From: Azolla caroliniana
Lineage: Eukaryota > Plantae > Polypodiophyta
Assembly (NCBI GenBank): GCA_043228905.1
Contig: JBHGNT010000385.1
Coordinates: 1-29,671, forward strand
DNA length: 29,671 bases
Reading direction: 5' to 3'
Below are positions 4,451 to 28,082 of the stretch, piece by piece; position 1 is the stretch's first letter, and every line of letters begins with the position of its first letter. Under the pieces are notes generated by a model. That model was given only the letters and a program-made list of their open reading frames with translations. It had not been told where the DNA came from and did not search any database. The position numbers and the translations under genes were made by a program.

Positions 4451-7188
4451 GGTGAGAAAACCACACTTCTGAGAACGTGAACGAGTAGAAGGGGGAAGGA
4501 AAGAGTGATAGAGAGAGGAGGTACGAACCTAGGGAATCACCGAGTGTAGAGAGAGAGAGACTAATTGATAGTTCGAGATAAACCTTCGAGCCAAGAGAGA
4601 TAGAGAGACAAAGTGGAAGAGACACTGACTAACTATCTTCATGATTGACTAACTACTAGAGATCTTATATAGTTAAGACCTCCGTACAACATTACCTAGG
4701 ATTTTACACAAGTGATGTTTTTTCATATTTGAAATCTATTTTCATTGAATGTGACTTTTAATTTTCACACAAGTGATCAACTTTTTAAACCCAAATATTG
4801 GATTTACTTTTACTTTTTTAAGTTTTTCCTCCACATGGAATCTAAAGTTTTGGCCAAAAGTTGGTACACTGTAGCATGCTCTGACCCTCTACCAATGCAC
4901 CATCTCCTTTTCATCAAATTTCAGCCATCACATTGCAACAATTGCGCTAAGCTGGAGGCAAGGAGGACCTTTTCTTATTTGCAGTATCAATGACACCTTC
5001 TAGTGACACTCAAGGGAATTTAGACATCCAAATTCCCATAAAATATCAAGACTATGTTGATGTTTTTGACAAAGTCAAAGCTAGTGTTCTTCCAAAGCAT
5101 CGGTCGTACGACTAGCCTATTGATCTCCAACTAGGAAAAGAGCCACCGTGGGGTTCGATTTACAATTTATCATCCACTGAGCTTGAGGTTCTTCGAGAAT
5201 ACATCGAGGAAAATTTTGCACATTGGTTTATTCGACATTCAAAGTCTCCAACTGGTGCTCCTATCTTTTTTGTGAAGAAAAAGGATGGCAACTCCCTTCG
5301 TTTGGTTGTGGACTATCAAGGCTTAAATAAAGTCACCATAAGGAATAGGTATGCTCTACAGTTAATCTCCAGTCTCTTAGAATGCATTGGTGGGGCAAAG
5401 TATTTTATCAAAATTGATCTAAGGGGTGCATATAATCTTGTTCGAATTCAACCGGGAGATGAGTGGAAAACTGCATTTCGTACTCGGTATGGTCATTTTG
5501 TGTATACAGTCATGCCTTTCGAGCTCACAAATGCACCCGCAGTATTTCAACATATGGCAAATGACATTTTCCGGGATTTCTTGGATATCTTTCTCATCAT
5601 CTACCTAGATGATCTGTTGATTTACTCTAAAACACAAGAGCATGATATACATGTGCGGAAAGTACTTGAACGCCTAAGAAAGTATGGTCTTTATGCCAAA
5701 ACTTGAGAAATGCAGTTTTGATTGCAAACAAATCGAATTTTTGGGATACACTATTTCATCCAAGGGTATTTTCATAGATCCGGAAAAAGTCCAAACAATA
5801 TTGGAATGGAAACCCCCATGCTCAGTTTAGGACGTCTGGTGTTTCCTCAGATTTGCGAAATTCTATCACAAATTCATACGTAATTATTCAAGCATTGTGT
5901 TGCCCCTCACCCAACTCACCAAGAAAAATCAAGCATTTTTTTGGAGTATCGAAGCAGACAAGGTTTTTACTTTGCTGAAAGAGGCTTTCACATCAACACT
6001 TACCCTAGCGCATATTGATCCCGAAAAGCCATTTACTATTGAGGCGGATGTGTCAGACTTCGGATTGGGGTGTATCCTATCGCAACCAGCCAAGGACAGG
6101 TAGGCTCATCTAGTCGTGTTTCACTCGAGAAAATTTACCGTTTCGGAGATAAACTATGAGGTGCATGACAAGGAGTTACTAGCTGTGGTTGACTCATTCG
6201 AGCAATGGCGTCATTTTCTAGAAGGATCGTCTCATCAGATTCTCATTTATAGTGATCACAAAAATCTCACATATTTTCAAACAGCGTGAGTATTAAGTAG
6301 ACGACAAGTTCGGTGGGCCCAATTTCTAACGTGTTTCGATTTCAAGATCATTTTTCGCCCTTGAAAACAACAAGGGAAAGTAGATGCTTTGTCTCAGCGT
6401 TCATATCTAGCTCTTCGACTTGGATATGCGGCCTTTGACTATCAAAATCAGATTCTCCTTGGGCCATCAAAGTTACAGGCAACAGCAATTTATGCCACGC
6501 CACTTGATTCTAGCCTTCTTGACACTATTCGGCAACAAGTTCACTCTGATGATTTCGCTAAGGATGTCTTATCCCACATTGGTTCAAGTCGTCCATCGTG
6601 CTCCACATTGCAAGGGTCATCTCAACATTATCAGGACTTCAAGTGGCAAGATAGCTTACTCTTCTACAACAATCTCCTTTACGTCCCTAACGAATCACCC
6701 TGACTTCAAGTGTTAGAACATTGTCATGATGCCCCCCTGGCTGGACATTTTGGTATTGCCAAGACCATTGAGTTGGTGAAACATTCATTTTGGTGGCCTC
6801 ACTTGCAAAAATTTGTCGAAGATTACGTTCGCACATGTGACACCTGCTATCGTGCCAAAATACCTAGGCATCATCCTTATGGCTTACTACAACCATTACC
6901 ACCTCCCAGCAAGCCATGGCAGTCTATTTCTATGGATTTCAATCTGCTACCTTCCAAAGGCTTTGATAGTATTTTAACAGTAGTGGATCAGTTCACAAAG
7001 ATGACACATTTTGTATCATGTGTAAAGACCATTAGTAATGAAGAAACTACAAATCTCATTATGCGTGAGGTGTTTCGCCATCATGGTCTCCCAATGATAT
7101 TATTAGCGATCGAGCTCCTCAATTTATCTCACACTTTTGGAAGCACCTATGGGCAAGTCTCAAAATCTCCTACAAACTCTCTTCGGCT

Positions 7189-7783
7189 AAAAAACGGATT
7201 GATATTCTGGAGCGCTAACAATGGCCATAGTATGAGATAAAAGAGGAATAAGAGATTAGTATGAAGGGAGGGAGAAGTAAGAAGATAAAGGAAGAGAAGG
7301 AAGGAGACCAAAATCGGTTCAAACTACCAGGAGCAGTACTAAGATAGAGAAGTATTGTCAAGAACAGTATTGAGACAGAGAAGGAATTTGCATTAAAAGA
7401 CGAGGACTAGTACTAAGGGAGGTGTAGAACTCTCGAGAGAAGGAAAGAGTGAGTGAGTGAGAAAGAGAGAGAGAGAGAGAGAGAATGATGATGACAAAAT
7501 ATATATATTATGTTAAGAGAATATACAATAGTAGCTAGGAGGCTTAAGATTGGCGCGATTTGGTTCGAAATAATGCCTTGTGCCTCTTTTTATAGTGTTC
7601 TCAGGAGTACTCCTGAAGTTTCTAAAATGTTCCAGAGAAATCTAGAATATACATCAATTTTTTATAGTAAAACTTAAATGAAAATAATATCCTTTATATT
7701 ACAACATATAGTCTAATGGTCAAGAGGCGACCCAGACCCATGTACCATAAGGTTATGGGTTCGAGTCTTGCCATATCATGACA
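7189..7783 (-). mobile_element. Truncated family-D gypsy element: 5' LTR (7325-7783), leader and first gag codons, inverted within G1 integrase
   Basis: Reverse complement aligns with 24449-25020, with the gag ATG at 7228. It splits the integrase motif KLSSA|YHPQT. Confidence 0.88.
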
Positions 7784-8293
7784 CTTATCATCCACAAACT
7801 AACGTACCAATAGAGCGCACAAATCAAAAGCTCGAATTGTATCTTCGATGCTTCATCAGTTATCAACAAGATGATTGGAGTAATATTTTACATCATGTCG
7901 AGTTTGCATACAACAACACGGTATACTCTTCTACCAAAGTTACAGCTTTCTTTACCTACACTGGCAACCACCCTCGATGGTGTATCTTGGATCTTCTTGA
8001 GGTGTCACGAAACCCTAGTGCGGAGTATCACCTCCACCGACTACAACAAATCCAATTTGAGTTATCTTCACATCTTCAAAAAGCGCAAGCACACCATAAG
8101 ACCACTTGGCATTGTCTTAGGTTTCCTTTTAAGGTTGGTGACCGAGTATGGTTGCTTTGTCGTCACATCAAGACTACCCGACTGTGTGTTAAGCTCAATT
8201 ATCAACGCTTAGGTCTTTTTGTCATCATAGCGTGGATTAATGATGCAACATTTCGTCTTAACCTTCCTGCACATATGTGGCTTCACCCAGTCT

Positions 8294-8434
8294 TTCATAG
8301 CTCTCTCTTGGAACCTTTCCACACCTCTTTAATTCCTAATTGTGTTGTACCACCACCGCCTTCGTTCATAGCTCTCTTTCAGAACCTTGCCACACCTCTT
8401 TAATTCCTAATTGTGTCGTACCACCACCGCCTTC
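8294..8434 (+). repeat. 71-bp tandem duplication in G1 integrase C-terminus
   Basis: TTCATAGCTCTCT...CCACCACCGCCTTC occurs at 8294 and 8365. Confidence 0.92.
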
Positions 8435-8680
8435 TGTCAAACTGGTTGATGGCCCCGAATACAAGGTAGTTGTTATTCTCGATTCTAAGATTGTGCACAA
8501 TAAACTTTATTATCTAGGTGATTGGCTTGGCTATCCTTCGAGTGATCTCACTTGGGAACCTGTCGATAACATTTGTAATGCTCAAGCTCTTATCGACGAC
8601 TTCCATCGCCACTATCCAAACAAAGCCGGCCCTACAATGTGAACGCCGACTTCCACTCGGCGTTCTCGGAGGAGGGATAG

Positions 8681-9095
8681 TGTCATGAACAAATTGACCA
8701 TTATGGTGTCACCCGGACTTGAACCTCAAACCGTCTAATCCATAATTGAAAACCTCAACCATTAAGATAGCTTATTGTCATATGAGAGGATAAAAGCTAC
8801 TTTTTGTATTACATTGATTATTGTAAAAACTCTAGATCATTCTAGGTTGTTCTAGAATGTCCTAGAACATTAAAGAACATTATAGAAATCTCAAAGTTAT
8901 TCTATAGGAACCTATAAATAAGGGCATACATGTATTCTCAAATCAATTCGAATCAACACCAGTATTTAGCTCTCATTACATATCTTGTATCCATTCTCTT
9001 TCTTTCTCTATCTTAATACACCCATTCGTTCATTTCTTCTCGTGTTCTCTTATATCCCTCTTCCATCACTTTATCTTTTATTCTTGGTTCTAACA
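8681..9095 (+). repeat. 3' LTR of G1 (right end tentative)
   Basis: TGTCATGA directly follows the PPT, TATAAATA is at 8913, and the candidate end TCTAACA at 9095 abuts an unrelated tandem repeat. Confidence 0.7.
8715..8769 (-). promoter_or_regulatory. tRNA-like Pol III A-box/B-box module in G1 LTR
   Basis: Minus strand: TATCTTAATGG (8769-8759) and GGTTCAAGTCC (8725-8715), starts 44 nt apart. Confidence 0.6.
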
Positions 9096-9240
9096 CCATC
9101 ATTTGGCCGATTCTATGGGATATTGTGGCCTTGACGAGGTGTATATCGCTTACCTATGCCACTCTACCCTCTATTGAGCCATCACTTGGCCGATTCTATA
9201 GGATGTGGTGGTCTTGAGGAGGTACATGTCAACTACCCTA
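9096..9240. repeat. 83-bp-period tandem repeat, ~1.7 copies
   Basis: CCATCA(T/C)TTGGCCGATTCTAT occurs at 9096 and 9179. Confidence 0.8.
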
Positions 9241-9705
9241 GAGTTTCTTACTTTATGGCATGTTTAATGTTTCATACACCTAATTGATTATTATTCTACT
9301 TATTTATTAATTACACAAGTTATCTTCCCTCTTTCTTATTAAGATTTTCTTGTGATTTTCATCTACCCACTCACACTTCACTCTCTCTTTTTTACCATTA
9401 CTTTTCACGTTTAAAGTATTTACGTGTGTTTACCGATGATGTAACGCTTCCATGTAAACTATTTTTTCGTGAGTGGGCATCATGCCCCTTTTTGAACCAT
9501 TTCTCCAATGAGTCATCTAGGTTTAACTTATGTTATCGAGCCTTAGAACTCGAGTAAAACCACATGAATTCCCCTATTGATGTTTTACTCATAGAGTTGA
9601 GTACTGCATCTTTGCGCGCAACACCACCACCACTTGTATCAACTTCTGCAAATTACAACCACCAGATAAGGATGGATATGTGCATACCTCGTACCATCCA
9701 TTTAT

Positions 9706-10191
9706 TGTTAGGAAACAGGTCCCTCCGGATGGGAAGTGAGAAGAACCGTGTTGATGAGCAACTTGGAAATCATGGAGATAGCCAACACGGAAGGCTAAAC
9801 TTGTAAATAGTCGAAAGGTTACATTAGTATGTTAGTATTTAGGGCAATCATGTTAGATAAGTGCATTATTGTAAAGTTACTGTTGATGAGGTTGTTGCCT
9901 CTGTAACTGTGAGAGTGAACGAGTGTGAGTGGAAGCGTGGGAGCTCCATAGCCGCCTGTTGGCGAAGCAGGATCTCGAGTGTGTTGCCTCTGAGATCTCT
10001 GATTGTATTCCTTTCTCTCATAGTGTTTTGTTTCGGAGTTTGTGGACTCCACGTGGTTTTTTCCCAGTTCGGGTTTCCACGTTAAAATCTGTGTCATTCT
10101 CAATTTCTGTATTCTGTTTTTCTTTTCCATTAGATTGACTATTATTCCACACACGTACAACCGGTTGTGGCCAGCAACGATCTGAACTTCA
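9706..10191 (+). repeat. 5' LTR of copia A
   Basis: TGTTAGGAAAC...GAACTTCA; aligns with 19726-20195. Confidence 0.95.
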
Positions 10192-10194
10192 AAC

Positions 10195-10206
10195 TGGTAT
10201 CAGAGC
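10195..10206 (+). other. Primer binding site, initiator tRNA-Met (copia A)
   Basis: TGGTATCAGAGC just after the 5' LTR. Confidence 0.95.
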
Positions 10207-10220
10207 GAGCAACACAGAAA

Positions 10221-11644
10221 ATGGAAGGAGGTGGGAGCGGCTTCCCATGTATGATGGTTCTAAATTCACAGAACTATGCAGACTGGAAGATTAAGATGGA
10301 AGACCTTCTCATTGTAAAAGACCTGTACGAGCCAATCGATAGATCAGAAATACCAAAGGGGGTATTGGAGTCGGATTGGAAGCTTCTAAATAGGAAAGAT
10401 GTGGCCACTATCCGACAGTGTGTCAACGTAAGTGTCCTTCAGCACGTGGCAAACGACACGAATGCCCACGAGATGTGGCAGAAGTTGTTGGGTCTTTATG
10501 AGAGGAAGAATGCGCTCAACAAAACCTCATTGATGAGGAAAATAGTAAACCTGAAATACAGAGACGGCGAGAGCATGGTTGAACACGTAAGCACATTCAT
10601 GGGGTATGTAAATCAACTTGCAGCGATCAAGTTCCCCTTGGATAATGTAATGCAAGCAATCATGTTGATGTGTACGTTGCCGGAAAGCTGGGAGAACTTG
10701 GTGGTTACTCTCAGCACCTCCTGCCAATAAGAGAACTTGTCTTTGCAGACGGTGAAGACAAGCATCCTGAACGAGGAGGCGCGTCGGAAGGACAAGGAAC
10801 CGATCCCCAACTCAAAAGCGCTCCTTTCTAAATCGGAACGTGGAAGACAAAGGAACCGGAGTCCCCAGAACCGGGAAAAATCGGGGACACGGTCAAAGTC
10901 AACAGGGAGGCCTACTTGCTTCTACTGCGGGAAGTCGGGGCACTTCCAGAAGAACTATCAACATTTACCGATTCGAAGAATTCATCAGACCGAAACGGTT
11001 CGGATCGGCGAGGGCAGGACCGGAAAGGAACGATGGCAATCATAGCAAACGAAGAGAAGCTAATGCTTATCACTGAGGAGAGTGAGCTGAACCTTGCCAG
11101 CGACGAGATGACCTGGGTGCTCGATTCCGGAGCGTCGTTCCACTTGACCCCAGATAGAAAATGCTTCTTATCCTACTCAACTGGTGACCACGGCCGTGTT
11201 CGAATGGGGAATGAAGGTACATGCCGAATTGTCAGCTTAGGAGATGCGTGGTTGACAACATCAACCGGATGCAAGATGCTGCTAAAGGATGTTCGACATG
11301 TTCCGGAGGTTCGATTGAACCTAATATCAGCCGGTCGGCTAGATGATGAAGGCTACACGGGTAGCATCCGGAACGGTGTTATGAAGTTCAGCAAAGGGAG
11401 CCTGATTGTGGCTCAGGCCCGGAAAGTCAACACTTTGTACCTGATGAATGCCCGGTTATGTCCGGAGGAAGTGAACGTGGCATCTGACACTTTCGGTGAG
11501 TTGTGGCACAAGAGGTTGTGTCACATGAACGAGAAGGGGATGAAGAGGCTTGCAGACGACAACCTCATTCCAGTGAAGAACGTGCACTTGGAGAAGTGCA
11601 CTGATTGTCTGACCGGTAAACAAAACCGGACCTCCTTCCGATCG
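10221..11644 (+). pseudogene. gag-pol: Copia A gag, protease and integrase N-terminus
   Basis: NYADWKIKMEDLL, zinc knuckle CFYCGKSGH, WVLDSGASFH and LWHKRLCHM..CTDC. Stop at 10728-10730 and a frameshift near 10970. Confidence 0.93.
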
Positions 11645-12432
11645 TGTTGGGAGACAGGTCCCTCCGGATACGGAGAGCCGGATGGTGCAAACCCGGTGAG
11701 AACCGGATGAGGAGTACCCGGCTACGGAGAGCTGGATGGTGCAGACCCGGTGAGAACCGGATGAGGAGTACCCGGCTACGGAGAGCCGGATAGTGCAGAC
11801 CCGGTGAGAACCAGATAAGGAGTACCTGGCTACGGAGAGCCGGATGGTGCAGACCCGGTGAGAACCAGATGAGGAGTACCCGGCTACGGAGAGCCGGATG
11901 GTGCAGACCCGGTGAGAACCGGATGAGGAGTACCTAGCTACGGATAGCCGGATGGTGAAGAGCCGGTGAGGAGTGCTCACCGGATGAAGAGACATATTCG
12001 TAAATATGTTTCTGAGAGTCCATAGAGGCTATATTTGTAAATAGCTGAAAAGTCATATTAGTATAAGTATGACTTAGGGCAAACTTTTAGTATTTTATTG
12101 TTGTCTGCGCGAGATCCGAGCGCGTAACTGTGTACAGAGAGAGAGAAAGAGAGAGAGGAAGAGGTCGCTGCCTCTATTGTAACCGCCACCTATGGCGAAG
12201 ATCGTGAGCATGAGGTCGTTGCCTCCGTGAACTGACTGTTGTACATTCTAGCATAGTGATAGTTTGCAGCCTGTGGGTTGCCGTGGTTTTTCCCTAGTTT
12301 GGGTTTTTCACGTCAACATCCTGTGTACTCTTCTCTTCTTTGTGTCGTGTGTTTCATTTCCCGTTTTTTGTGTATGATTCTAAGCTCAGTTGTGGCTGAG
12401 CGTTGCGTATAAGGAGCGTGCGGTTCCTGTCA
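11645..12432 (+). repeat. 5' LTR of copia B (788 bp)
   Basis: TGTTGGGAGAC...TGTCA, followed by the PBS. Confidence 0.95.
11669..11970 (+). repeat. 54-bp tandem array (5 copies plus a partial) in U3 of copia B 5' LTR
   Basis: Units start TACGGA at 11669, 11723, 11777, 11831, 11885 and 11939. Confidence 0.97.
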
Positions 12433-12434
12433 AG

Positions 12435-12446
12435 TGGTATCAGAGC
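12435..12446 (+). other. Primer binding site, initiator tRNA-Met (copia B)
   Basis: TGGTATCAGAGC 2 nt after the LTR. Confidence 0.95.
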
Positions 12447-12461
12447 GAAACGACACAGAAA

Positions 12462-15400
12462 ATAGACGAATCGTTGGGCGGCATGTTCAAGCTCACCGGC
12501 TCCAACTATTCAGTATGGAAGTCGAAGATGAGGGATATGCTTGTGGTTAAAGATCTTTGGTTGCCGGTTCAGTTTGGGGACAAGAGACCAGACAAAATCG
12601 ATGCCACGATATGGGAGGTGATGCACATGAAGACAACGGCGTACATACGGTGCTTCATCGACATGAGCCTATACAACAACTTCAATGAAGAGAGCAAGGC
12701 TCATGAGCTCTGGGAGAAGATCGGCATTATGTTTCAGAACAAAAATGTTGTTCATCAGGTTTCGGTATTCCGGAAGCTAGTAAGACTCCAGTACCAAGAT
12801 GGCTCCAGCATGGCGGAGCACATGAATGCCTTCCAGGGGCTGATCCACCAGGCAACTTCATTGGAAGTACCTCTCGTCGATGAGGTACTAGCGCTACTCC
12901 TGCTCGGTTCCCTCCCGGATAGCTGGGAGATGTTGGTTGTCACTTTGGGCAACGCCGGGCCGGAAGGAAAGCGGTTATCCCTAGCAAGAGTAAAGCTGAG
13001 CTTGCTAGATGAGGAGGCGCGTCGGAAAGATAAGAATACGAGCTCCGACTCCGAAGCGCTCCTTACCGAATCGGAACGCGTAAGACATAGAAACCATAGT
13101 CCCCAGAACCGGGAGAAGTGGGGGACATGATCAAAGTCAAGGGGGAGGCCTACTTGCTTTTATTGCGGCAAGCCGAGACACTTCCAAAAGAACTGTCGGC
13201 ATTTCCGAAAAGACAAGGAAACCGACGGTACCGATTCAAAGCGGATACCGGACCGGAACGGTAAAGACCGGAGGGGGCCGGGCCGGAAGGGAACGACGGC
13301 AATCACGGCAAGTGAAGAAGAGTTGATGCTCATCACCGAGGAGAATGAGATAAACCTTGCCGGCGATGAGACGACCTGGGTGGTAGACTCCGGAGCGTCG
13401 TTCCACCTTACCCCAGACCGGAAATGCTTCTCATTCTACTCAGCCGGTGATCACGGCTGTGTCCAGATGGGGAATGAAGGTACATGCCGAATTGTCGGCA
13501 TAGGAGACGTGTGGCTGACAACACCAACCGGAAGCAAGTTGCTGTTGAAGGATGTCCGACACGTTCCGGAGGTTCGTCAGAACCTGATATCAGCCGGTCG
13601 GCTAGATGATGAAGGCTACATGGGTAGCATCCAGAACGGTGTCATGAAGTTCAGCAAAGGGAGCCTGATTGTGGCTCGGGCCCGGAAGGTCAACACACTG
13701 TACCTGATGAATGCCCGGTTATGTCCGGAAGAAGTGAACATGGCATCCGACACTGCCGGTGAGCTGTGGCACAAGAGGCTGTGTCATATGAGCGAGAAGG
13801 GGATGAAGAGGCTTGCAGACGACAACCTCATTCCAGTGAAGAACGTGCACTTGGAGAAGTGCATTGATTGTCTGACCGGTAAGCAAAACCGGACCTCCTT
13901 CCGACCAAGGCCACCGATGAGACGTAATGCACCACTGGATAAGGTGCATACGGATGTGTGTCAAGTAAACACGAAGTGACATGCCGGAGCACAGTACTTC
14001 GTGACGTTCATTGATGACCACAGTCGGAAGCTGTGCGCCACACCGTTGAAGACGAAGGATCAGGTGCTATCCGTATTCAAAGAGCTCCACGCGATAGTGG
14101 AAAGAGAAACCGGCCGGAAGTTGAAGGCGATTCGAGCAGATAACGGAGGTGAATATTGGGGGCAGTTCGAGGAGTATTGTCGCTCGAAGGGAATACGGCT
14201 CGAATTTACTGTGCCGAAGACACGGGAACTAAACGGACTGGCCGAGAGGATGAACCGGACCATAATGGTGAGGGTCCGGAGTATGCTAGCGCATGCAAAA
14301 CTACCCAAGAAGTTTTGGGTTGAGGCATTGTCGACGGTGACATATGCGATAAATAGATCACCCTCAGTACCCTTGGACAGAGATACGCCACAGAGAGTGT
14401 GGACCGGTAAGGAAGTATCCTACCGGCATCTGAAGGTGTTCGGGTGTCTCGCGTACATGCATGTAGCTAAGGACCGGAGAGGAAAGTTAGATCCAAAGAA
14501 CCAGCCATGCATATTCCTCGGTTACGGTGACGATGAGTTCGGCTACTGAGTGTAGGACCTAGTCGACAAGAAGGTATTCCGGAGTCGAGATATTATCTTC
14601 ATGGAGGACAAGACGCTCGCCGACTGGGAGTCGGAGAAGAAGATAATGAACTCTGAGTCGACCGGTAAGGAGCGACTCTACGATGAGCAGACCCAACTGG
14701 CAAGAGACCGGTTAGCACTCGAGGGACCAGCCGGTTACGGTGAGGATACTGAATAGGCTGAAGAAGAAGTAGAGGAAGCTGAAACCGGAACCGGCCAAGA
14801 CCCCGAATCAGATTCGGATGAAGAGCAAATGGAGGAGCCGGTTACCGAAGCCCGAAGACAGAGATATCCTCTCAGAGAGAGAAGGGCGCCCCGGAGATTT
14901 CCGGATGCAGAGCATGTTCTACTGACCGATGAGGGGGAGCCGGAAAGCTTTAAAGAAGCGAAGGATGACACCCATAGCCGCAAATGGTTAAGTGCCATGC
15001 AAGATGAGATGGATTCCCTGCATGAGAACCATACGTACGAATTGGTGGAGTTGCTGAAAGGAAAGTGGGCACTCTGAAACAAGTGGGTGTACAAGTTGAA
15101 ACCGGGAGATGCCGGCAACCCCCCGAGATACAAAGCCAGGATCGTGGTGAAGGGGTTCCAGCAGAAGAAGGGCATGGACTTCGACGAGATATTTGCCCCG
15201 GTTGTAAAGATGACCTCCATCCGGATGGTGCTGAGTATAGCGGCAAGCATGGACCTTGAGGTAGAGCAGCTGGAGGTGAAGACGACATTCCTTCACGGCG
15301 ACCTCGAAGAGGAGATCTACATGCAGCAACTGGAAGGATTCATGGAGAAAGGGGAGCACTTGGTATGCCGGTTGAAGAAGAGCCTCTACGGGTTGAAGCA

Positions 15401-16505
15401 AGCCCCCCAGCAATGGTACCGGAAGTTCGACTCCTTCATGACTGATCAAGGGTACCACAAGACACAGGCCGATCACTGCGTGTTTGTGAAGTAGTTCGAA
15501 GGAGGCGACTTCCTGATACTCCTTCTGTACGTGGACGACATGTTGATTGTCGGACGAGACCAAGTCAAAATACGGATGCTGAAGAAGGCACTCCAACGGA
15601 CCTTCTCAATGAAAGACTTGGGTCCGGCAAGGCAGATGCTGGGGATGCACATTATCCGGAACCGGTCAGTGAAGCAATTATGGCTGTCACAGGAGAAGTA
15701 CGTGACAAAGATGCTTCACCGGTTCAACATGTCGGAAGTGAAACCGGTTGGATCGACACTTACGGCAAACTACAGGTTATCCGGTAAGCAAAGCCCGAAG
15801 ACGAAAGCAGAGAAGGCGGATATGATGAAGATTCCATATGCCTCTGCCGTCGGGAGCTTGATGTACGCAATGGTGTGTACCCAACCGGATATAGGATACG
15901 CAGTCGGAGTGGTGAAATGGTTTATGAGCAATCCCGGCAAGGAGCACTGGAACGCGGTCAAATGGATACTCTAGTATTTGAAGGGCACTTCAAATATGTG
16001 TCTCCGATTCGGCTCCGGAAAACCTCAACTTGACGGTTTCACCGATTCGGACATGTCGGCTGATGTGGATACCAGCCGGTCTACATCCGGGTATGTAATG
16101 ACATATGCAGGGGGAGCTGTCTCGTGGCAGTCGAGGCTGCAGAAGATGGTTGCATTGTCAACCACGGAGGCGGAGTACATGGCGGTTGTGGAAGCCGGCA
16201 AGGAAATATTATGGATGAAGGACTTCATCGGAGAGCTCGGTATCCGGCAAGATGAATACCGACTCTATTGCGACAGTCAAAGTGCCATCCATCTTGCTAA
16301 GAATGCGGCCTACCATTCCCGGACGAAGCATATCTAGCGAATATATCATTGGATCCGAGAAAGAGTAGATGACCAGGAGTTTTCACTGACGAAGATCCAC
16401 ACGGCCGAGAACGGGTCAGATATGCTAACCAAAGTGCTGACAACCGACAAGCTGGACGCATGCCGGAAGAGGATCAGACTAGTAAGACACAACATGCCGG
16501 AGTGA
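12462..16505 (+). pseudogene. gag-pol: Copia B gag-pol polyprotein, disrupted
   Basis: The likely start codon reads ATA at 12462. Motifs NYSVWKSKM, WVVDSGASFH, IRADNGGEY, LLLYVDDML and GFTDSD. Multiple in-frame TAG/TGA stops. Confidence 0.95.
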
Positions 16506-16515
16506 AGGGGGAGTT

Positions 16516-16803
16516 TGTTGGGAGACAAGTCCCTCCGGATGGGAAGGGAGGAGAACAGTGTTGATGAACAAACTAGGCCGAGGCCGGAACCGGATGAGGA
16601 GTACTCGGCTACGGAGAGCCGGATGGTGAAGACCCGGTGAGGAGTGCTCACCGGATGAAGAGACATATTCGTAAATATGTTTCTGAGAGTCCATAGAGGC
16701 TATATTTTTAAATAGCTGAAAAGTCATATCAGTATAAGTATGACTTAGGGCAAACTTTTAGTATTTCATTGTTGTCTGCGCGAGATCAGATCGCGTAACT
16801 GTG

Positions 16804-16851
<48 letters not shown>

Positions 16852-17123
16852 GAGGTCGTTGCCTCTGTTGTAACCGCCGCCTGTGGCGAAGATCGTGAAC
16901 ACGAGGTCATTGCCTCCGTGAACTCACTGTTGTTCATTCTAGCATAGTGATAGTTTGTAGCCTGTGGGCTGCCGTGGTTTTTCCCTAGGTTGGGTTTTCC
17001 ACATAAACATCTTATGTACTCTTCTCTTCTTTGTGTCGTGCGTTTCATTTCCCGTTTTCTGTGTATGATTCTAAGCTCAGTTGTGGCCGAGCGTTGCATA
17101 TAGGGAGCGTGCGGTTCGTGTCA
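16516..17123 (+). repeat. 3' LTR of copia B (608 bp) with (AG)21 at 16807-16848
   Basis: Follows the PPT, aligns with the 5' LTR and is followed by the TSD. Confidence 0.95.
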
Positions 17124-17128
17124 GATCG

Positions 17129-19715
17129 AGTCCACCAATCAGACGTAATGCACCACTAGAGTTGGTGCATACTGATGTGTGTCAAGTGGACACGAAGTCA
17201 CATGCCAAATCGCAGTACTTCGTGACATTCATAGATGACCACAGCCGAAAGTTGTGGGTCACACCATTGAAGACGAAGGATCAGGTGTTGTCCGTCTTCA
17301 AAGAGCTCCACGCAAGAGTGGAAAGAGACACCGGCCAGAAGCTGAAGGCGGTTCGAGTAGATAACGGAGGAGAATACCAGGGGCAATTCAAGGAGTACTG
17401 CCGCTCGAAGGGAATCCGGCTCGAATTTACCATGCCGAAGACGCCGGAACTAAACGGGTTGGCCAAGAGGATGAACTAGACCATAATGGAGAGGGTCCGG
17501 AGTATGAACCCAAGACATTTTGGCTTGAGGCACTATCAACGGCGACATATGTGATAAATAGATCACCCTCAGTACCCTTGGATGGAGACACGCCGCAGAG
17601 AGTCTGGACCGGTAAGGAAGTGTCCTACCGGCATCTGAAGGTATTCGGGTGTCTTGCATACGTGCATGTAGCTAAAGACCGTAGAGGAAAGTTAGATCCG
17701 AAGACCCGGCCATGCATATTCCTCGGTTACGGCGACGATGAGTTCGGTTACCAAGTGTGGAACCCTATCGACTAGAAAGTATTCCGGAGTCGAGATATTA
17801 TCTTCATGGAGGACAAGACGCTCGTTGACTGGGAGTCGGAGAAGAAGATAATGAACTCCGAGTCGACCGGTAAGGAAAATTTTCAATTTGATGAAATGCA
17901 GTTCCAACCGGCAAGAAGCCAATTAGCCCTCGATGAACCGGCCGGTGACGGTGAGGAGACAAAACCGGCCGAAGAAGAAGGAATAGGTGAAACCGAAACC
18001 GGACAAGACCCCATATCGGATTCGGATGAAGAGAAAACATAGTAGCCGGTTACCGAAGCCCAAGGACGCAGATATCCTCTCAGAGAGAGAAGGCCCCCGT
18101 GGAGATTTCCGGATCCAGAGCACGTGTTGCTAACCGATGAGGGGGAGCCAGAAAGCTTCGAGGAAGCTAAAAGTGACGCCCATAGCCGCAAATGGTTAAG
18201 TGCCATGCAGGATGAGATGGATTCCTTGCATGAGAACCATATGTACGAATTGGTGGAGTTGCCAAAAGGAAAGCTGGAACTTCGAAACAAGTGGGTGTAC
18301 AAGTTGAAACCGGGAGATGACGACAACCCCCCGAGATGCAAAGCTAGGATCGTGTTGAAGGGGTTCCAGCAAAAGAAGGGCGTGGACTTCGACAAGATAT
18401 TTTCCCCGTTAGTAAAGATAACTTCCATCCGGACGGTGCTGAGTATAGCGGCAAGCATGGACCTCGAGGTAGAGCAGCTGGACGTGAAGACGGCATTCCT
18501 TCATGGTGACCTCGAAGAGGAGATCTACATGCAGCAACCGGAAGGATTCGTGGAGAAAGGGAAGGAGCACCTGGTTTGCCGGTTGAAGAAGAGCATGTAC
18601 GGACTGAAGCAGGCTCCCAGACAATGGTACCGGAAGTTCGACTCCTTCATGACTGACCAAGGGTATCACAAAACGCAAACCGATCACTGCATGTTTCTGA
18701 AGAAGTTCGAAGGAGGCGACTTCCTGATACTCCTTCTATACATGGACGACATGTTGATCGTCGGACGGGACCAAGACAAAATACGGATGCTGAAGAAGGC
18801 TCTCAATCGAACTTTCTCAATGAAAGACTTGGGCCCAGAAAGACAGGTATTGGGGATGCACATCATCCAGGACCGGTCAAAGAAGCAATTGGGGTTGTCA
18901 CAGGAGAAATATGTGACAAAGGTGCTTCACCGGTTCAACATGTTAGAAGCGAAACCGGTCGGATCGACACTCCTGGCAAACTACAGATTATCCGGTAAGC
19001 AAAGCCCGAAGACGAAAGCAGAGAAGGCGGATATGATGAAGGTTCCATATGCCTCTGCCGTCGGGAGCTTAATGTACGCAATGGTGTGTACTCGACCGGA
19101 TAGTGGATACGCAATCGGAGTGGTGAGTCGGTTTATGAGCAATCCCGGCAAGGATCATTGGAACGCGGTCAAATAGATACTCCGGTACTTGAAGGGCACT
19201 TCGAATATGTGTCTCTGATTCGGCTCCGGTAAACCTCAACTTGACGGTTTTACCGATTCGGATATGTCGGCTTATGTGGATACCTGCCGGTCTACATCTG
19301 GGTATGTAATGACATATGCAGGGGCAACTGTTTCGTGGCAGTCCAGGCTATAGAAGACGGTTGCGTTGTCAACCACGGAGGCGGAGTACATGGCGGTTGT
19401 TGAAGCCGTCAAGGAAATCTTATGGATGAAGGACTTCATCGGAGAGCTCGGTATCTGGCAAGATGAATATTGGCTCTATTGTGACAGTCAAAGTGCCATC
19501 CACCCTGCTAAGATCGCAACGTACCATTCTAGGGCGAAGCACATCCAACGAAGGTATACTAGATCCGGGAGCGAGTAGAAGATCGAGAGTTCATGCTGAC
19601 GAAGATCCACACGGCCGAGAACGGGTCAGATATGTTGACCAAAGTACTGATACCCGACAAGCTGGATGCATGTCGGAAGCGGATCGAAGTAGTAAGACAT
19701 CCCATGCCGGAGTGA
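17129..19715 (+). pseudogene. pol: Copia A pol remainder (integrase core, RT, RNase H)
   Basis: VHTDVC, VRVDNGGEY, ORF 18124-19176 with LLLYMDDML, and STTEAEY. Stops and small deletions are present. Confidence 0.95.
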
Positions 19716-19725
19716 AGGGGGAGTT

Positions 19726-20195
19726 TGTTAGGAAACAGGTCCCTCTAGATGGGAAGTAAGAAGAAACCAGAAATCATGGAGATAACCAACACGGAAGGCT
19801 AAACTTTTAAATAGTCGAAAGGTTACATTAGTATGTAAGTACTTAGGGCAATCATGTTAGATAAGTGCGTTATTGTAAAGTTATTGTTGACGAGGTTGTT
19901 GCCTCTGTAACTATGAGAGTGAACGAGTGTGAGTTGAAGCGTGGGAGCTCCATAGCCGCATGTTGGTTAAACAGGATCTCAAGGTCGTTTCCTCTTAGAT
20001 CTCTGATTGTATTCCTTTCTCTCATAGTGTTCTGTTTCGGAGTTTGTGGACTCCACGTGGTTTTTTCCCAGTTCGGGTTTCCACATTAAAATCTGTGTCA
20101 TTCTCAGTTTTTGTATTCTGTTTTTCCTTTCCATTAGATTGACTAGTATTCCGCACACGTACAACCGGTTGTGGCAGGCAACGATCTGAACTTCA
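19726..20195 (+). repeat. 3' LTR of copia A
   Basis: Follows the PPT and ends GAACTTCA before TSD TTTAT. Confidence 0.95.
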
Positions 20196-20200
20196 TTTAT

Positions 20201-20797
20201 TTGTGACAATTATTTTTAGTAGACAACACATGGTTTTCTGAACCTTGTTTTTGTCACTTCTTGACGCTAATAGGTAGTGACTTATTTTTCTTTCTTTTTT
20301 CATAACATTTGCTTGCTACTCGCAAGACTAAAATATTACTTGCGAGTGCACTTGTTTTTGCATATAATACACTTTCTCGACCATATCAATACATGTTGAG
20401 GTTGCATTTTAATATAAGGCTAACTAGGAAATTACATTGATGCTAGAACCATGGCTGAGCCTCGGGAAGCCGCCATGATAGGGATGGATATGTGCATACC
20501 TCACACCATCCATTTATTTGTGGCAATTTTTTGTAGTAGACAACGCATGGTTTTTTGAACCTTGTTTTCGTCACTTCTTGACGCTTATAGGTAGTGGCTT
20601 AGTTTTCTCTTTTTTTTCATAACATTTGCTTGCTACTCGCAAGACTAGAATATTACTTGCGAGTGCACTTGTTTTTACACGTAATTTACACTTTCTTGAC
20701 CATATCAATACATGTTGAGTTGGCATTTTAATATAAGGCTAACTAGGAAATTACATTGATGCTAGAACCAAGGTTGAGCCTAGGGAAGCCGCCATGA
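20201..20797. repeat. ~319-bp tandem duplication; the first unit begins at 9665 and is split by copia A
   Basis: GCTAGAACC occurs at 20442 and 20761. Segment 20477-20530 matches 9665-9705 joined to 20201 onward. Confidence 0.93.
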
Positions 20798-21174
20798 GTA
20801 TTCAAGAAAGAGATCCGAGAAAGACATCTTTGGTATGTTTTCCCCCATGGTTTTTAAAACACCATAGTGTTACCATAGTTATTAGATCTTGAATCACATC
20901 TCATATTTCCAGAGGGGTAAGGACATGAGATGCTTTCTTGGCTAAGGTTCTTCCAATCAAAATTTCAAGCATTCATTTTGCTTGTGTATTTTCTGAACCT
21001 CGCAACTTGTGTACACGCAACTTGCATCATGGAATAAATTTTGAACACTATTGGAGCGATCCCTCTGATAGAGACCTCTCAAGTCCAATCCGCATCTCGC
21101 ATACAACCTGAGATCACTATTGAGAAATTGCTCACTACTACCTTGAATCAATTGGCTAGAATGAGGCCAAGAAT

Positions 21175-21993
21175 ATGGCTTTGGAAAAGAAATTCCAAGA
21201 ATTGACTATTGAGTCCAAGAAAGAAGGTGAACCTTCTTTCATAGTCATGCCATTCAAGGAAGATAAGAAAGAAAGAACCGAGGAGGCCAGATTCAAGGGA
21301 GATAAGAAAGAAAGAACCAAGGAGGCCAGTAACACTTGGCTTGGTCGTTGGGAGTCTCACTTTGATCTCCATCCCAAGCCCGATGCTGTAAAAATTGGTT
21401 ATGTCGGTTGTGAGGAAGGTTATTGAGCTACTGCTTGGTGGCACGGCCTAAGGACTGCAAAGAACTTACCCACCACTTGGGAAGGTTTTGTCGATGTTTT
21501 TAAGAAACTGTTCTTGCAGTCACCTTCTCAAACCGAACAAGCGCAAAACTGGCTCACGTTGTCGAGCAAGCCATTTACCTCTCTCGAGGATTTTGTGCAT
21601 CATGCTCGAACCTAGATCCAAAAATCGGGACTTACGGGTAGGAAATGGTTTGTCGCTTGTTTTTTGAATGGTATTCCCAATGGGGATTACCATTGGATTT
21701 TCCATGACAAGGACCCCATGACTTTCGAGGAAGCCGTCAACATTTTACTTCGGTACCATAGGACTTCCAAGAAAGACCACGATAAACCTGAGTTTGCAAA
21801 AACTCAAAATGTCAAGTTCATTGGGAAACGTAAGCAATCCAGTGACACTCTTGACCGTGACTCAAAGAAACCGAACCTCTTCTATGCATATGGCAAGAAG
21901 CAGAGCCACACAAAGGATAGATGTTGTCGTCTTGAAAGGAAGTCAATGAACACCCCTCCCTCCTCAAGACAAATCTACGAGTCACACAAGTGA
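21175..21993 (+). pseudogene. gag: Degenerate gag of gypsy element C
   Basis: FKGD...TWL..WE.HF capsid-like start and a decayed CCHC knuckle (HTKDRC), directly upstream of the protease. Confidence 0.7.
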
Positions 21994-22077
21994 GTCTTTT
22001 GATGTTATTGAAGGTCATACCAACCACTAAGTTCATGTGAATGCACTTTTCCTTCACATTTACTTGGACCTAATGAT

Positions 22078-24448
22078 TTACTCCGAGCAGTCGGGTATAT
22101 CAATGGAACACAAGCACATTTCTTGTTTGATTCTGGTAGTTCTCACAATTTTCTTAATGATCACTTGGTGCAGCAAATGCAACTCCACATAAAAGCAAGT
22201 GATCATATCTATCAAGTTCACATGGCAAATGGAGGCGTTCAATACATCAATGGCATTGTTTGTCAACTGCCAATTCAAATAGATACCTATCTGGAGAAGC
22301 TTGACTTTCATGTTGTGAAACTACAATCCGCAAATATCATTTTAGAATACCCTTGGTTTTTTAATAAAAACCCTTCTTTGTCCATTGATTGGGTTAATCA
22401 CTCAATCACATTTGAACTTAATAATTGTAAACATTTTATTCAATGTTCCAAAATTCCTTCTCATTCACTTGTGTCTTATAAATCTATAAGTGATTATTCT
22501 AGTTCATCAATTTATTCGTGTGTAATTGATCCCGAGCTTCAATTTTATTATTTTAATATTGACGCTAAACAATTACCACATTATGAACGACAATTACTCG
22601 ACTCTATTTTAGCTGATTTCCAAGACGTGTTTCCTAATGAATTGTGGCTTACGTTACCACCAAAACGTAATATGGAACATCAGATTGAACTCATCCTGAG
22701 TGCTGCTCCTGTGACCATTCCACCTTATCGACTTAGTCGATTAGAAGACAATGAGATCACTAAACAACTTAAGGAATACTTGAGTATGGGCCACATTAGG
22801 TATAGTAAATCACCTTGGGTTGTGCCAGTTCTATTAGGTAAGAAGAAGGAAGGTTCATGGCGAATGTGTATCAATTATCTCCATTTGAATAAAATGACAA
22901 TAAAAAATTCATATATGTTACCTCGTGCCAATGATTGTTGCCGGTTAGGAACACAGCCTACCCTCACTCCTTCGGGGTAGGTATCAAGGTGATCATGGTG
23001 CAAGGGTAGGATCTTGCATAGCGCGTGGAACGTATTGACTTATATCGTTAGAGCGTGTTTACCAAAGGCGTAAAACTAGAGACAGCTACAACCGAGCTCC
23101 TAATGTGCGTAACTACGCACATGTCCTCCTCTTACACACTTACGCTTAAACAACCACACAGAGACAACAGAGAAGAGACCAGAGATAAAAGACGGAGCTC
23201 GGAGAAGACAAAAACTATATTAAACGACTGTGCTCAGAAATGGCTAACCCTTTACAATGTTCATATGCCCTTTATATCATAGGGCCTAGTCGGTTACGCT
23301 TCCTGCGTGAACCGTTACACATGTTACTTCAATGCTTCTATTATAATTAATACGCCTCTTTATCATGCATTATTTACGTTTTTCCTCTTATGGAGGACAA
23401 CAATGATTTGATTGATTGTTTGCATGGGGCCGATATTTTACAAAAATTGACTTACGAACAGGTTATCATCAGATTTGCATTGCCGAGGACGATATTCCTA
23501 AAACTGTGTTTCGTATGCACTATGGCCATTATGAGATTTTATTCATGCCTTATGGATTGACTAATGCTCCAACCACATTCCAACAAGTGATGAATGACGT
23601 TTTTCGAGATCAACTTGGTGATTTTGTTGTCGTCTTCTTGGATGATATTCTCATATATAGCCGCACCTTGCAAGATCATGTTCAACATGTTTGATTTGTT
23701 TTGCAAAAGTCGCATGACAACTCTTTCTATGAAAAAATTCAAAATGTGATTTTTTCCAAAAATCTATTGTGTACCTAAGTCATTAAATTACAGAAAATGG
23801 TGTTGAAATTGAACCTTCTTGTATTGAAAAGGTTAAACTATGGCCCATTCCTCGTAATATTCGTGAATTTCGATCATTCTTAGGATTTGTTGGATTTTTA
23901 CGAAAATCAATTCGTAACTATTCCAAATTGAGTACACCATTAACTGGCCTTTTAAAAGGTCATCCACGCAAGTCTGTCAAACCAATTTCCTGGAATGAAA
24001 AACTTGGCACATCATTTGAGACACTCAAAGAGCATGTGTGTCAAGCTCCCACTCTTCTATTACCGGACCCTTCCAAGCCTTTCTCAATTGAAACCAATGC
24101 TAATGATTATGCTATTGGTGTTGTCCTTTATCAAGGCGGTCACCCTATCACTTTTAAAAGTAAAAGGCTTGATGCTACTCAATCTCTGTATTCGGTTCAA
24201 GAGAAAGAGTTGTTCGCGGTAATACATGGACTAAAAACATAGAGGCATTATCTCTATGGAAATCAATTTGTGGTTACAACGAACCATCAATCCTTTAGGT
24301 ATTTTTGTGACGAGCCGGATCTTGTTGGTGTTAAAGGCCATTGAGCTGACCTTATGCAAGATTTTGATTTTTCCATACGGTATTCCAAGGGTTCTATGAA
24401 CACCATTGCAGATGCTCTTAGTCACATTAAAGAAGTTAACATGGTTAG
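22078..24448 (+). pseudogene. pol: Degenerate pol of gypsy element C (PR, RT, RNase H), cut by LTR D
   Basis: [55 protein letters not shown] and EKELFAVI. Confidence 0.92.
22936..23402 (-). mobile_element. Solo LTR (467 bp) in RT of C
   Basis: TGTTG...CAACA termini and perfect TSD ATGAT. Removal restores LPRANDLID. Orientation is inferred from a minus-strand TATA near 23271. Confidence 0.92.
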
Positions 24449-24909
24449 TGTCATGATATGGCAAGACTCAAACCCATGACCTTATGTTATATGGGTCGAG
24501 CTCTTGACCATTATACCATCTATTGTAATACGTAGGACATTATTTTCATTTAAGTTTTATTATAAGAAATTAATGTATATTCCAGATTTCTCTAGAACAT
24601 TCTATAAGCTTCAGGATTACTCCTGAGAACACTATAAAAGAAGGAACTAGGCATTATTTTGAACCAAATTGGTTCAACGCCGGTCTTAAGCCTCATAGCC
24701 CTTTTGTACTTACTCTTCACATAATATATCATCTGTTATCATCATCTCTCTCTCTCTCATCCTCTCTCTCTCGTCCTTGCCATGTCTCTCTCTCTCCTCT
24801 TCTCTCTTTCTCTCTCTCGGGAGTCTTACGCAGTCCCGTCCTCTTAGTACTAATAGTACTTCCCTTCTCTAGTACTAATTCTCTCTTTGTTTTAGTACTA
24901 TTCCTGACA
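24449..24909 (+). repeat. 5' LTR of D (461 bp)
   Basis: TGTCATGA...TCCTGACA termini and TATAAAA at 24633; homologous to 7325-7783. Confidence 0.88.
24464..24518 (-). promoter_or_regulatory. tRNA-like A-box/B-box module in D LTR
   Basis: Minus strand: TGGTATAATGG and GGTTTGAGTCT, starts 44 nt apart. The sister copy has TAGTCTAATGG (7709) and GGTTCGAGTCT (7758). Confidence 0.62.
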
Positions 24910-24978
24910 GTTTCAACCAATTTTCCCTCTCTAGTTTTTCTTTTGGTTTCCCTCATCCTCTTATCCTTTTTCTTTACA

Positions 24979-25661
24979 ATGGCTTTTGTTAGCGCCCACG
25001 AATACCAATCTGTTTTCTCCGAGCTACAGTGTCTAAAAGAAAAATTGGTTGCCTTGGAACAAGAAAACCAACGGTTGTTAGGGGATCTTCAACAAATCAC
25101 CCTAGAAAAACAGCAAACGTAGCAACAACATGGGGAATTGCAACAGCAACATGGGGAGTTAGCATTACATGTGCAACAACTTGAAGCAGCATTGCAACAA
25201 GGATCAAGTCCCCAAGGATTTCATAAAGAGCCCAAGAGTGGACTTCTTCTGAAAACCGCATTTTCGAACAGCGTTCGGAACATCAATTACAAATACCACG
25301 CCCTAGGCCAGAGCCCACATATGCCTTAGTCGCGGCTAAGCCGTTTGCACGAGAAATATCTCAAGCAAATACTCCGACACCGATGGAGATCGACACCATG
25401 CGTGGACGTGGCCCGTTATCGGAAGAAGAAAAGCAACGACGACGTGCAAATCGATTATGTCTTTATTGCGGTGGACTAGGGCATATCGCAATCAACTGTC
25501 CCCATAGGCCAAGAAGACTGGTAAATCAAATCGTAGCCTATACTAAACCCGAGTCAATTCTTCCCTTAGGCGTGTCTAATAGTATTAATAGTACTACTAG
25601 CCCAAGTATCTCAAACAAATTTGAAATCCTTAGTCAATTAGATGAAGAGTTAAACGACTGA
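24979..25661 (+). pseudogene. gag: Gag of D with internal deletion
   Basis: N-terminal coiled coil, KEPK, then a frame jump to PTPMEID..EEKQRRR.NRLCLYCGGLGHIAINC. Confidence 0.85.
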
Positions 25662-25700
25662 GTCCAACCAAAATAGGAGTCGTTTGGTTGGACAGCCCTA
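25649..25700 (+). promoter_or_regulatory. Putative -1 ribosomal frameshift signal
   Basis: G TTA AAC in the gag frame, a 6-nt spacer and a perfect 11-bp stem. Pol is open in the -1 frame from this point. Confidence 0.75.
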
Positions 25701-26504
25701 GATTTGTACAACCCATTAGTGGTTCCATTCCCTCCAAGCAAGTTAGCAATGTGTTCCTAGCCCAAGTCATGTTTAGTACTAAAAGTACTCCTCCAGTACA
25801 CGTCCTAGCACTTTTAGATTCTGGAGCCAATTCCTGTTTCATGGATCGAAATTTTGCCCAAGTTTCTCAAATATCCTTAAGAAAACTTCCTTGGCCCACA
25901 TCTGTAGTAGTCATTGATGGTCATCCCATTGCTTCCGGGAATATTGTACAAGAGTCAGAACCCATTCAGGTTGTCCTAGGTAGTTTTGTGTGTGTAGTAT
26001 CATTCAATATAATTAGTAGTCTAGAGCATCCCATTGTCCTTGGATTACCTTGGTTTGAATTACATAATCCAGACATAGATTGGAGAACAAGAGAAGTCCG
26101 ATATCAACAACCCCAAGAATCCACTCATCCAGTTTCGACCATTTCACTACGTCAACTACGCGAAGAAGGACACAAGGAGGCAATGTTCCTATTTGCAATA
26201 TCAGTACATCCTTCCAGCAATATTAAGGAGGAATCCTTAGTACAACTTCCGAAGAAATATCATCCTTATGCCGATGTATTTGACAAGGTAAAAGCCGGTA
26301 CTCTTCCTCATCATCGTCCCTACGGTTGTCCCATCAATTTACAACCAGGAGCAAAGCCACCATGGGGACCAATCTACAACTTGTCACTAACCGAGTTAGA
26401 AGTCCTTCGGGCCTACATAGAGGAGAACTTGGCAAGCGAGTTTATTCGTCATTGGAAATCTCCGGCCGGTGCACCCATCTTCTTTTTCAAGAAGAAAGAT
26501 GGTT

Positions 26505-26799
26505 GGGTGAAAGCATGGGAATGGGAACAATTGGTTGTCCTTGACATAGCTAATTAGCTATCTAAAAAGCTACATGTAATCTGTATATTTTGGCAAATTT
26601 AGGGATGATTAGAATTTGATCTCAGAAAAAGACTAGCTAAACGGTGGACCATAAATGGTAATATTTCCATCTCCATAATAAATGGTACGTATCTTTAAGA
26701 TCTTCCTACTAAAAATTAGCTATAAAGAAAACTATTTAGCTGTGGTCATTTTAGCAGCTAAATAGCTATAATAGTGTTTCCATTCGCATGCTTTCACCC
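26505..26799. mobile_element. MITE-like TIR element (~295 bp)
   Basis: GGGTGAAAGCATGGGAATGGGAACA...TGTTTCCATTCGCATGCTTTCACCC with 2 mismatches. AT-rich and non-coding; splits the RT motif KDG|SLRL. Confidence 0.9.
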
Positions 26800-27018
26800 A
26801 GCTCACTTCGTCTCGTTGTTGATTACCGCAGCTTGAATAAAGTCACGATCCGGAATAGGTATGCACTTCCTCTTATATCGTCTTTTAGAGTGAGTTAATG
26901 CTGCCAAGTTTTTTACAAAAATCGATCTACAAGGAGCATATAACCTTGTGCGGATCCGATCGGGAGATGAATGGAAGACCGCCTTTCGTACGCGGTATGG
27001 GCATTTCGAGTATACCGT

Positions 27019-28082
27019 TGTCATGAAGATCCATCACTAGGCGCGGATCGCGAGGCGGAACCGCCAGGGTTCTGGACCGGAAAGATCGAAGTTCGCACCA
27101 AGCTTAGCGAGAAAGTATTTAGGATAGATTGAGAGAGAGAAAGAGATTAAGATTAAACGCTTGACTTAGATTGAGAAAGATTGATATGGCCAAGAGAGAG
27201 ATATTGAGATTAAGATTTTAACTCTTGATTTAAGAAACAAGATATATCATCAATGAATTTTCTTCTCATTAATTTCTTAGTTCATACATGGATCCATAAT
27301 ACATTTTCATCCATCCTTTTATAGATGCCTCCATGCATATGATGCATGTTTGCCATTTGGCGCTCGTGTATTTACATGTGGTGCATGATAACCATGTCAC
27401 TCATTTTAGCTCTCATGCATAAGAATTTACATGTAAAAGTACAATGATAGAAATATAATTTCAACTAAATATCTTGGCTTAGTGGTAAGCTAATTGACTC
27501 CTAACTTGGAGGTGCAAGGTTTGAATCCTTACTTGCCCTCCTTGTATATGTATATATATTTATATATTTATTTATCTAGTCATCGGATGCCGGTTTTCGG
27601 CCAGTTCGCCAGATGTTGCCGGTTACCAGTGGCCACTGCCTCGCCGGATGTCGGTTTCGCCGGATCACCGACTCCATCGTCGGTCCGGTTTTGGTTGGCC
27701 AAAACCTTTATGAGTGGTTAGGCCACCTCCACTCTTAGTTCAAGTTACCTTGAACTCTCTATGGTCCACAAATAGACACAAAGATAACATCTTTTGCTCT
27801 ACCTTATATATGATGAGAGCCGTATTTTTCATGCCTATGTGGGATATCTCATAGTTTTCTCTTTTCCTTTCACAAACTTTATACCCTCATATCTTGACAT
27901 CTAGTTGTCCGTTTCTCATGTAATAAAGTGCATTCAAAAGCTCTTGAAGACCTCCATCATTTTGTACTTAGATAGTAAACTTATTTAAAATGTTATCTTC
28001 ACTATTATTGTTTTATGTGATTCATACTCAATTTTGTACGTTTTATGTGATTTTCACACCATTGCCAAAAATCTTCACGACA
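27019..28082 (-). mobile_element. Solo LTR E (1064 bp) in RT of D
   Basis: TGTCATGAAGAT...ATCTTCACGACA termini and decayed 4-bp TSD CCGT/CTAT. Removal restores EYTVM. Minus-strand TATAAAA near 27320. Confidence 0.85.
27475..27528 (+). promoter_or_regulatory. tRNA-like A-box/B-box module in solo LTR E
   Basis: TGGCTTAGTGG (27475) and GGTTTGAATCC (27518), with an AAGG/CCTT T-stem remnant. Confidence 0.68.

Follow-up and report, generated by a model that had tools for sequence, protein, structure and literature searches.

A 29,671-nt stretch of the Azolla caroliniana genome (contig JBHGNT010000385.1 of assembly GCA_043228905.1; hereafter the window) holds four retrotransposon long terminal repeats (LTRs) from three families, each of which carries in its U3 region, antisense to the LTR, a tRNA-type RNA polymerase III (Pol III) promoter pair consisting of an A box and a B box. 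The module recurs among chromodomain-linked relatives; the observation is real and clade-wide, and the module is likely under selection. Judged from sequence, we give about an even chance to the reading that this conserved, clade-wide U3 module is a TFIIIC-binding DNA element derived from an ancient tRNA or short interspersed element (SINE) promoter.

A/B-box pairs in four window LTRs

Generic A- and B-box patterns (textbook consensus) with a spacing of 40-50 nt were scanned over the 29.7-kb window. At ≤2 mismatches, five pairs were found at four sites, exactly the four of the original prediction, with the fifth pair reusing the B box at 7758; the positions, strands and spacings of 49, 44, 44 and 43 nt were all confirmed. 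The module of LTR A1 lies at 7709..7768 (+; A box 7709-7719, B box 7758-7768, spacing 49), that of LTR B at 8715..8769 (-; A box 8769-8759, B box 8725-8715, spacing 44), that of LTR A2 at 24464..24518 (-; A box 24518-24508, B box 24474-24464, spacing 44) and that of LTR C at 27475..27528 (+; A box 27475-27485, B box 27518-27528, spacing 43). In 100 local shuffles of the window, pairs at ≤2 mismatches averaged 0.06 with a maximum of 1. A1 (LTR start 7783) and A2 (24449) belong to one family (82% identity over 340 nt), and the three LTR families count as three independent cases. The A1 spacing is 5 nt above the 44 of its relatives, and the A2 copy has T at position 56 (tRNA numbering), a CpG-type change, where high-coverage relatives have C. 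The distance from A box to TATA box, put at about 115-155 bp, measured 115, 144, 115 and 152 nt. A CAA had also been noted before each A box; it is present within 15 nt upstream in all four window pairs but does not extend to the clade (13/26 relatives, 6.7 expected). In A1, A2 and B, 15-34 nt separate the end of the B box from the outer LTR end; the module of LTR C lies ~555 nt inside, away from the edge.

Conservation among chromodomain-linked relatives

Relatives were picked by the chromodomain of element B alone, ignoring the LTR, and comprise 78 loci from metagenome contigs (best 80 of 87 matches kept). An LTR start was located in 64 loci, and 60 starts had at least 120 nt of LTR; 53 starts from loci and 3 from the window make up 56 unique LTR starts. 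Antisense pairs at ≤4 mismatches occur in 44 of these 56, compared with 1 sense pair, and at ≤5 mismatches in 49, compared with 6 sense pairs and 3.1 expected from shuffles. With R allowed at position 57, 43/60 LTR starts have an antisense pair at ≤3 mismatches, and 41 of the 43 are spaced by 43 or 44 nt, the layout of a type-2 Pol III promoter with A and B boxes at tRNA spacing. Grouped at 80% coding identity, 9/14 clusters carry the antisense module and none carries it in sense. A control on the inner LTR gave 0 antisense and 1 sense pair among 55; neither shuffled sequence nor the sense strand nor the inner LTR reproduces the pairs. Four further clusters (the L010 group, L050, L064 and L071) align in register with degenerate boxes, and L067 is a distant, GC-rich element without the module. 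Carriers are spread over the pol tree, with pol ends 37% to ~63% (median) identical; 21/79 rows with too short an overlap were left out of this tree, and its label 'weak_or_none' includes L010, L026, L028, L048 and L051, which were merely too short for the anchoring step. The viral contigs searched held no relatives, and the 15 pattern matches in IMG/VR were set aside as chance hits.

LTR C had no blastn match in the 78 loci, and a module profile also missed it. At L066:583-640, in an LTR-like repeat ending near 905, an A/B pair appears to share the orientation of its own TATA and is followed by a T4 run, possibly an independent capture in the opposite orientation. More tRNA-promoter-like matches outside the chromodomain-linked starts were seen at L070:1052-1107, L066:4991-5046, L035:172-197, L048:295-318 and L064:3400-3422 (shuffled set, 0 matches); those of L035 and L064 look like other LTR starts.

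A motif-blind MAFFT alignment of 32 hand-picked clade representatives places the module in register and almost gap-free between flanks rich in indels, and a repeat alignment with 13 cluster representatives gave the same picture. The boxes are more conserved than their flanks: the ten near-invariant tRNA positions average 0.90 versus 0.58 elsewhere (p 1e-6; columns are not independent). Mean column conservation is 0.87 at positions 14-21, 0.88 at 44-48 and 0.82 in the B box, compared with 0.59 upstream, 0.58 at positions 8-13, 0.58 at 22-43 and 0.48 at 63-68. Positions that are free obey the promoter consensus (R9, Y11, R15 and R57), and position 59 is fully variable between fixed A58 and T60. 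Inter-family spacer identity falls to 57% while the boxes persist. Within family C, listed variants fall at 2/11 places of the A box, both purine swaps at R9 and R15, and at 16/42 places upstream and 11/22 places downstream of it. The boxes are cleanest in high-coverage contigs, which are likely young and multi-copy: pairs at ≤3 mismatches occur in 22/24 of these versus 20/35 low-coverage contigs, although high-coverage contigs are collapsed copies and cleaner throughout, so that part of this contrast is expected. C56 is kept in 23/23 high-coverage contigs, with G57A in 6/23, and the CpG at 56-57 is kept in 17/23.

By sequence, A1, A2 and B are placed among the Tcn1-like self-priming chromoviruses. 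The pol order of L004, a collapsed contig with open gag and pol frames and the full domain set, is protease, RVT_1, RNase H, integrase, SH3_Tf2-1 and Chromo. Judged by eye only, the elements resemble SM-Tcn1 closely in Pol. With the Tcn1 clade (PMC2864245, PMC6317226) they have in common the PR-RT-RH-IN-chromodomain order, the lack of a tRNA primer-binding site (PBS) and self-priming; PMC6317226 predicts Tf1-type self-priming for Tcn1 (Neumann et al. 2019). In L001, L004, L006, L007, L017 and L024, 12 bases starting 32-33 nt behind the TATA box are perfectly complementary to bases 2 nt behind the LTR, and shorter complements exist in A2 (9 bases) and L014 (7 bp); this test covered 51 sources, and most of the other 43 do not run from the LTR into the 5' leader. 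The R/PBS complementarity shows matched changes in three lineages. SM-Tcn1 has an R start and a post-LTR complement nearly as in family B, by eye; a 13-base self-priming complement can be seen by eye just behind its 5' LTR in supplement S3 of PMC2864245, and the accessible text of that paper reports no evidence of self-priming for SM-Tcn1. Neither it nor PMC6317226, in the parts at hand, mentions a tRNA-like LTR sequence. The elements of the clade self-prime via R/PBS, and therefore the module is not the primer. A self-encoded primer within the module was rejected on the same ground, as the priming site pairs with R, and the 'CCA' near B boxes was rejected as a tRNA 3' end because it is not at tRNA positions 74-76.

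Between module and TATA box, which lies 104-253 nt from the A box, several families have heat-shock-element-like repeats. Such words number 43 versus 2.5 expected in U3 of 13 representatives and are absent from four. Arrays are found in L004, L033, L053, L050, L065 and others, with one copy in each of the window LTRs, and suggest heat-inducible families.

A candidate TFIIIC-binding element and its rivals

The module is neither a tRNA gene nor a separately inserted SINE. The tRNA scan proposed with the original prediction was empty for the window (ARAGORN 0, Rfam 0), and ARAGORN on 60/78 loci found 0 tRNAs. Selection for a cloverleaf was rejected, as the acceptor stem (0.38 paired) and anticodon stem (0.39) pair like slid controls and nothing covaries. 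Independent SINE insertions, which the prediction had named as a possible source of the boxes, are not seen: there is no tail and no visible target-site duplication (TSD) of its own, and the module occupies one homologous place in all clusters. The family C module has a depth like the rest of the LTR, with no clean skipping joint among those shown; it is part of the family and not a single-copy insertion.

Under the TFIIIC-binding reading, one old antisense capture of a tRNA or of a tRNA-derived SINE head would have founded the module in the clade. Host TFIIIC binding to the boxes as DNA would keep it in place, antisense and 10-60 nt from the outer LTR end, and would position TFIIIB over the AT-rich sequence that lies between the A box and the Pol II promoter region. 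Together, TFIIIB and TFIIIC would hold the outer LTR edge open and block the spreading of silent chromatin from the flank, and such a barrier would suit an element probably guided into heterochromatin by its chromodomain. Should an outward Pol III transcript arise, it would vary in length and be a by-product. Both tRNA genes and TFIIIC sites are known to act as barriers and to be nucleosome-free. The original prediction had proposed a conserved LTR module that recruits TFIIIC and Pol III as an insulator or divergent transcription unit; none of the refuting outcomes listed with it was observed, conservation has held up, and its pattern fits recognition of DNA by TFIIIC.

Several observations pull the other way. 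Mismatches exceed three in 17/60 LTR starts, L009 has the module deleted, and nearly all loci come from one assembly series and probably from few related hosts. The 5' half of the A box (0.58) is no better conserved than the flanks, and G10 (0.41) and C62 (11/32, often T) depart from the tRNA consensus. Positions 44-48 (0.88) and T35 (0.94) are kept yet are not known promoter elements, and the 43-44 spacing is stiffer than TFIIIC is known to need; TFIIIC alone is an insufficient explanation for these features. At the level of events the C56/G57 asymmetry is weak (7 to 4 within the box versus 52 to 73 outside), and CpG asymmetry was dropped as proof of selection. The U3 of SM-Tcn1 is a tandem array without boxes, by eye, in the sequence accessible from PMC2864245, and the first 400 nt of the Physcomitrium patens RLG1 transcript likewise lack boxes by eye; the module therefore marks a sub-lineage and not all plant Tcn1 elements.

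The best-surviving rival, which we nonetheless consider unlikely, is that the outward Pol III unit makes a functional RNA, one that, starting in the 3' LTR, would cross U3, the polypurine tract and the end of pol in antisense and tune the element's own expression or silencing. A complete A and B pair at optimal spacing behind an AT-rich upstream stretch (0.72-0.96 AT in 25/26) speaks for it, and the rigid spacing, positions 44-48 and T35 could be constraints at the level of RNA. Termination argues otherwise: 4 members of one sub-clade do have a T4 run 10-11 nt past the B box, but the terminator is not conserved, with T4 inside the LTR in only 6/26 (3.1 expected) and none within 400 nt in 7/26. 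Nor is there a conserved fold, and the CAA is found in just half of the relatives.

Alternatively, the sense strand may be what counts, with U3 RNA pairing with a host tRNA in the particle for strand transfer, dimerization or packaging. We hold this to be improbable. Antisense orientation, the near-continuous conserved block at 43-61 and the fixed spacing would all follow from it, and wobble pairing also predicts that C56 is kept while G57A is tolerated. Ty3 has a bipartite primer site, and a tRNA3Lys-like sequence has reportedly been proposed for analogous pairing in HIV-1 U3-R. However, these elements self-prime, so that no tRNA sits on the cDNA; wobble-neutral changes are near absent (T47, T54 and T55 changed to C in 1/96, G53 to A in 0/32); and position 59 is free inside the block.

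Somewhat less probable still is that the motifs persist because they serve as Pol II factor sites on the strand of the LTR itself, their tRNA likeness reflecting ancestry only. Positions 44-48 and the retained portion of the A box resemble such sites, W-box-like and MYB-like words, as we take them to be, are visible in the module motifs, and the nearby heat-shock-element-like words imply that U3 collects Pol II sites; yet such sites rarely need a fixed spacing of 43-44 nt, and the degeneracy tracks the tRNA promoter at many positions. Least probable of all is a neutral relic, whether one old undecayed insertion or a conservation due to shared descent or alignment bias, for although all carriers form one clade, several clusters are degenerate and one locus lacks the module, the boxes persist at the low spacer identity given above and with proteins down to 37% identical, the CpG is mostly kept in high-coverage contigs, and there are no indels between the boxes in contrast to flanks full of them.

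Window elements, known systems and significance

The window consists of nested, broken copia and gypsy elements. Element B is represented by a broken pol (4911..8680, +) with reverse transcriptase (RT), integrase and chromodomain (RVT_1, Integrase_H2C2 and Chromo matches), the chromodomain at 8397-8642 (+), a polypurine tract at 8668-8680 (+) and its 3' LTR, LTR B (8681..9095, +; 415 bp, TATA 8913), whose length follows from a match to L001, L002 and L004-L007 that stops there. A CpG-rich, partly palindromic word is kept just before the polypurine tract (8645-8667 in the window) in most loci. A truncated family-A element is inserted inside the integrase of element B; its 5' LTR, LTR A1 (7325..7783, -), was recognized by its match to A2 and has its TATA at 7594 on the minus strand; it is followed by a self-primer site (~7311-7323) and by a gag stub that runs from 7228 to ~7189. 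LTR A2 (24449..24909, +; 461 bp, TATA 24633) is a 5' LTR whose R start at 24666-24674 is complementary to 24915-24923 directly behind the LTR, the self-primer, and is followed by a gag ATG at 24979.

LTR C (27019..28082, -; 1064 bp, TATA 27323) interrupts the RT of element A2 as a solo LTR-like insertion. Read with the module antisense, it begins TGTCGTGA and finishes TCATGACA; we infer its orientation from the TATA and a CT-rich tract. All four LTRs had been described as gypsy, which holds for A1, A2 and B and is not demonstrated for C, as C has no internal region in the window. Family C is high-copy along nearly its whole length, module included (depth; mixed flanks at 28082), and empty-site joints for the insertion occur in one sequencing run. 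A single contig of run X21, whose RNA status is a guess, covers the C module and does not count as evidence of expression. A ~295-bp insertion with terminal inverted repeats, resembling a miniature inverted-repeat transposable element (MITE), also interrupts the A2 RT (26503-26798), and six 54-bp tandem repeats lie in a copia LTR region (11612-12024). Two other LTR-like segments, at 22938-23403 and 28146-~28870, yield no box pair at the threshold of ≤2 mismatches; behind the second lie a TGG-type primer site and a gag frame. Nothing supported the idea that new insertions are aimed at the module: the distances from the host element's module to the two nested insertions of the window are 0.9 kb and 2.5 kb.

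Small-RNA-gene promoters in LTRs are known from Helenus/TRIMp3, Cassandra and Ajax (Kojima 2024, PMC10886601). [quoted passage not shown] The Azolla elements differ in being ~5-6 kb long, encoding gag-pol, having a Pol II TATA, self-priming and carrying the module outward. The same source, as accessible, states that many Repbase LTRs hold tRNA-like pieces and confines its analysis to TRIMs <1 kb (PMC10886601); single cases in autonomous elements may already be among Repbase LTRs. The heads of plant tRNA-derived SINEs share the short motifs, the best-kept A-box part and the B core of the module matching the SINE-Finder motifs RVTGG and GTTCRA, which in the available text of PMC7315354 are separated by a spacer within 25-50 nt; the module differs from them in having neither a tail nor its own TSD and in its fixed place inside the LTR clade-wide. 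The HIV-1 sequence is likewise a tRNA-like U3 sequence of an autonomous LTR element, with a different host and element class. Foamy virus LTRs carry Pol III microRNA units, and the present module differs from such retroviral U3 units in having no hairpin product and no tRNA primer. In the literature searched (open-licence papers, not Repbase entries), the module is undescribed.

Pol III promoters in LTRs are thus known from small non-coding TRIMs, where element RNA results. A conserved, clade-wide, outward-facing module in protein-coding chromoviruses cannot serve to make element RNA and so points to another use, be it as a chromatin barrier, an antisense regulator or a tRNA-pairing site, which bears on the question of how a promoter stays usable in elements that probably insert into heterochromatin. 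The module would also give the host genome many additional potential TFIIIC sites. More tentatively, and in our estimate doubtfully, autonomous LTR retrotransposons of the host may have repeatedly captured tRNA-type promoters and may employ TFIIIC/Pol III at the LTR edge as portable anti-silencing barriers, with family C and L066 as independent captures. If this were true, thousands of LTR copies would act as extra-tRNA TFIIIC sites that shape host chromatin.

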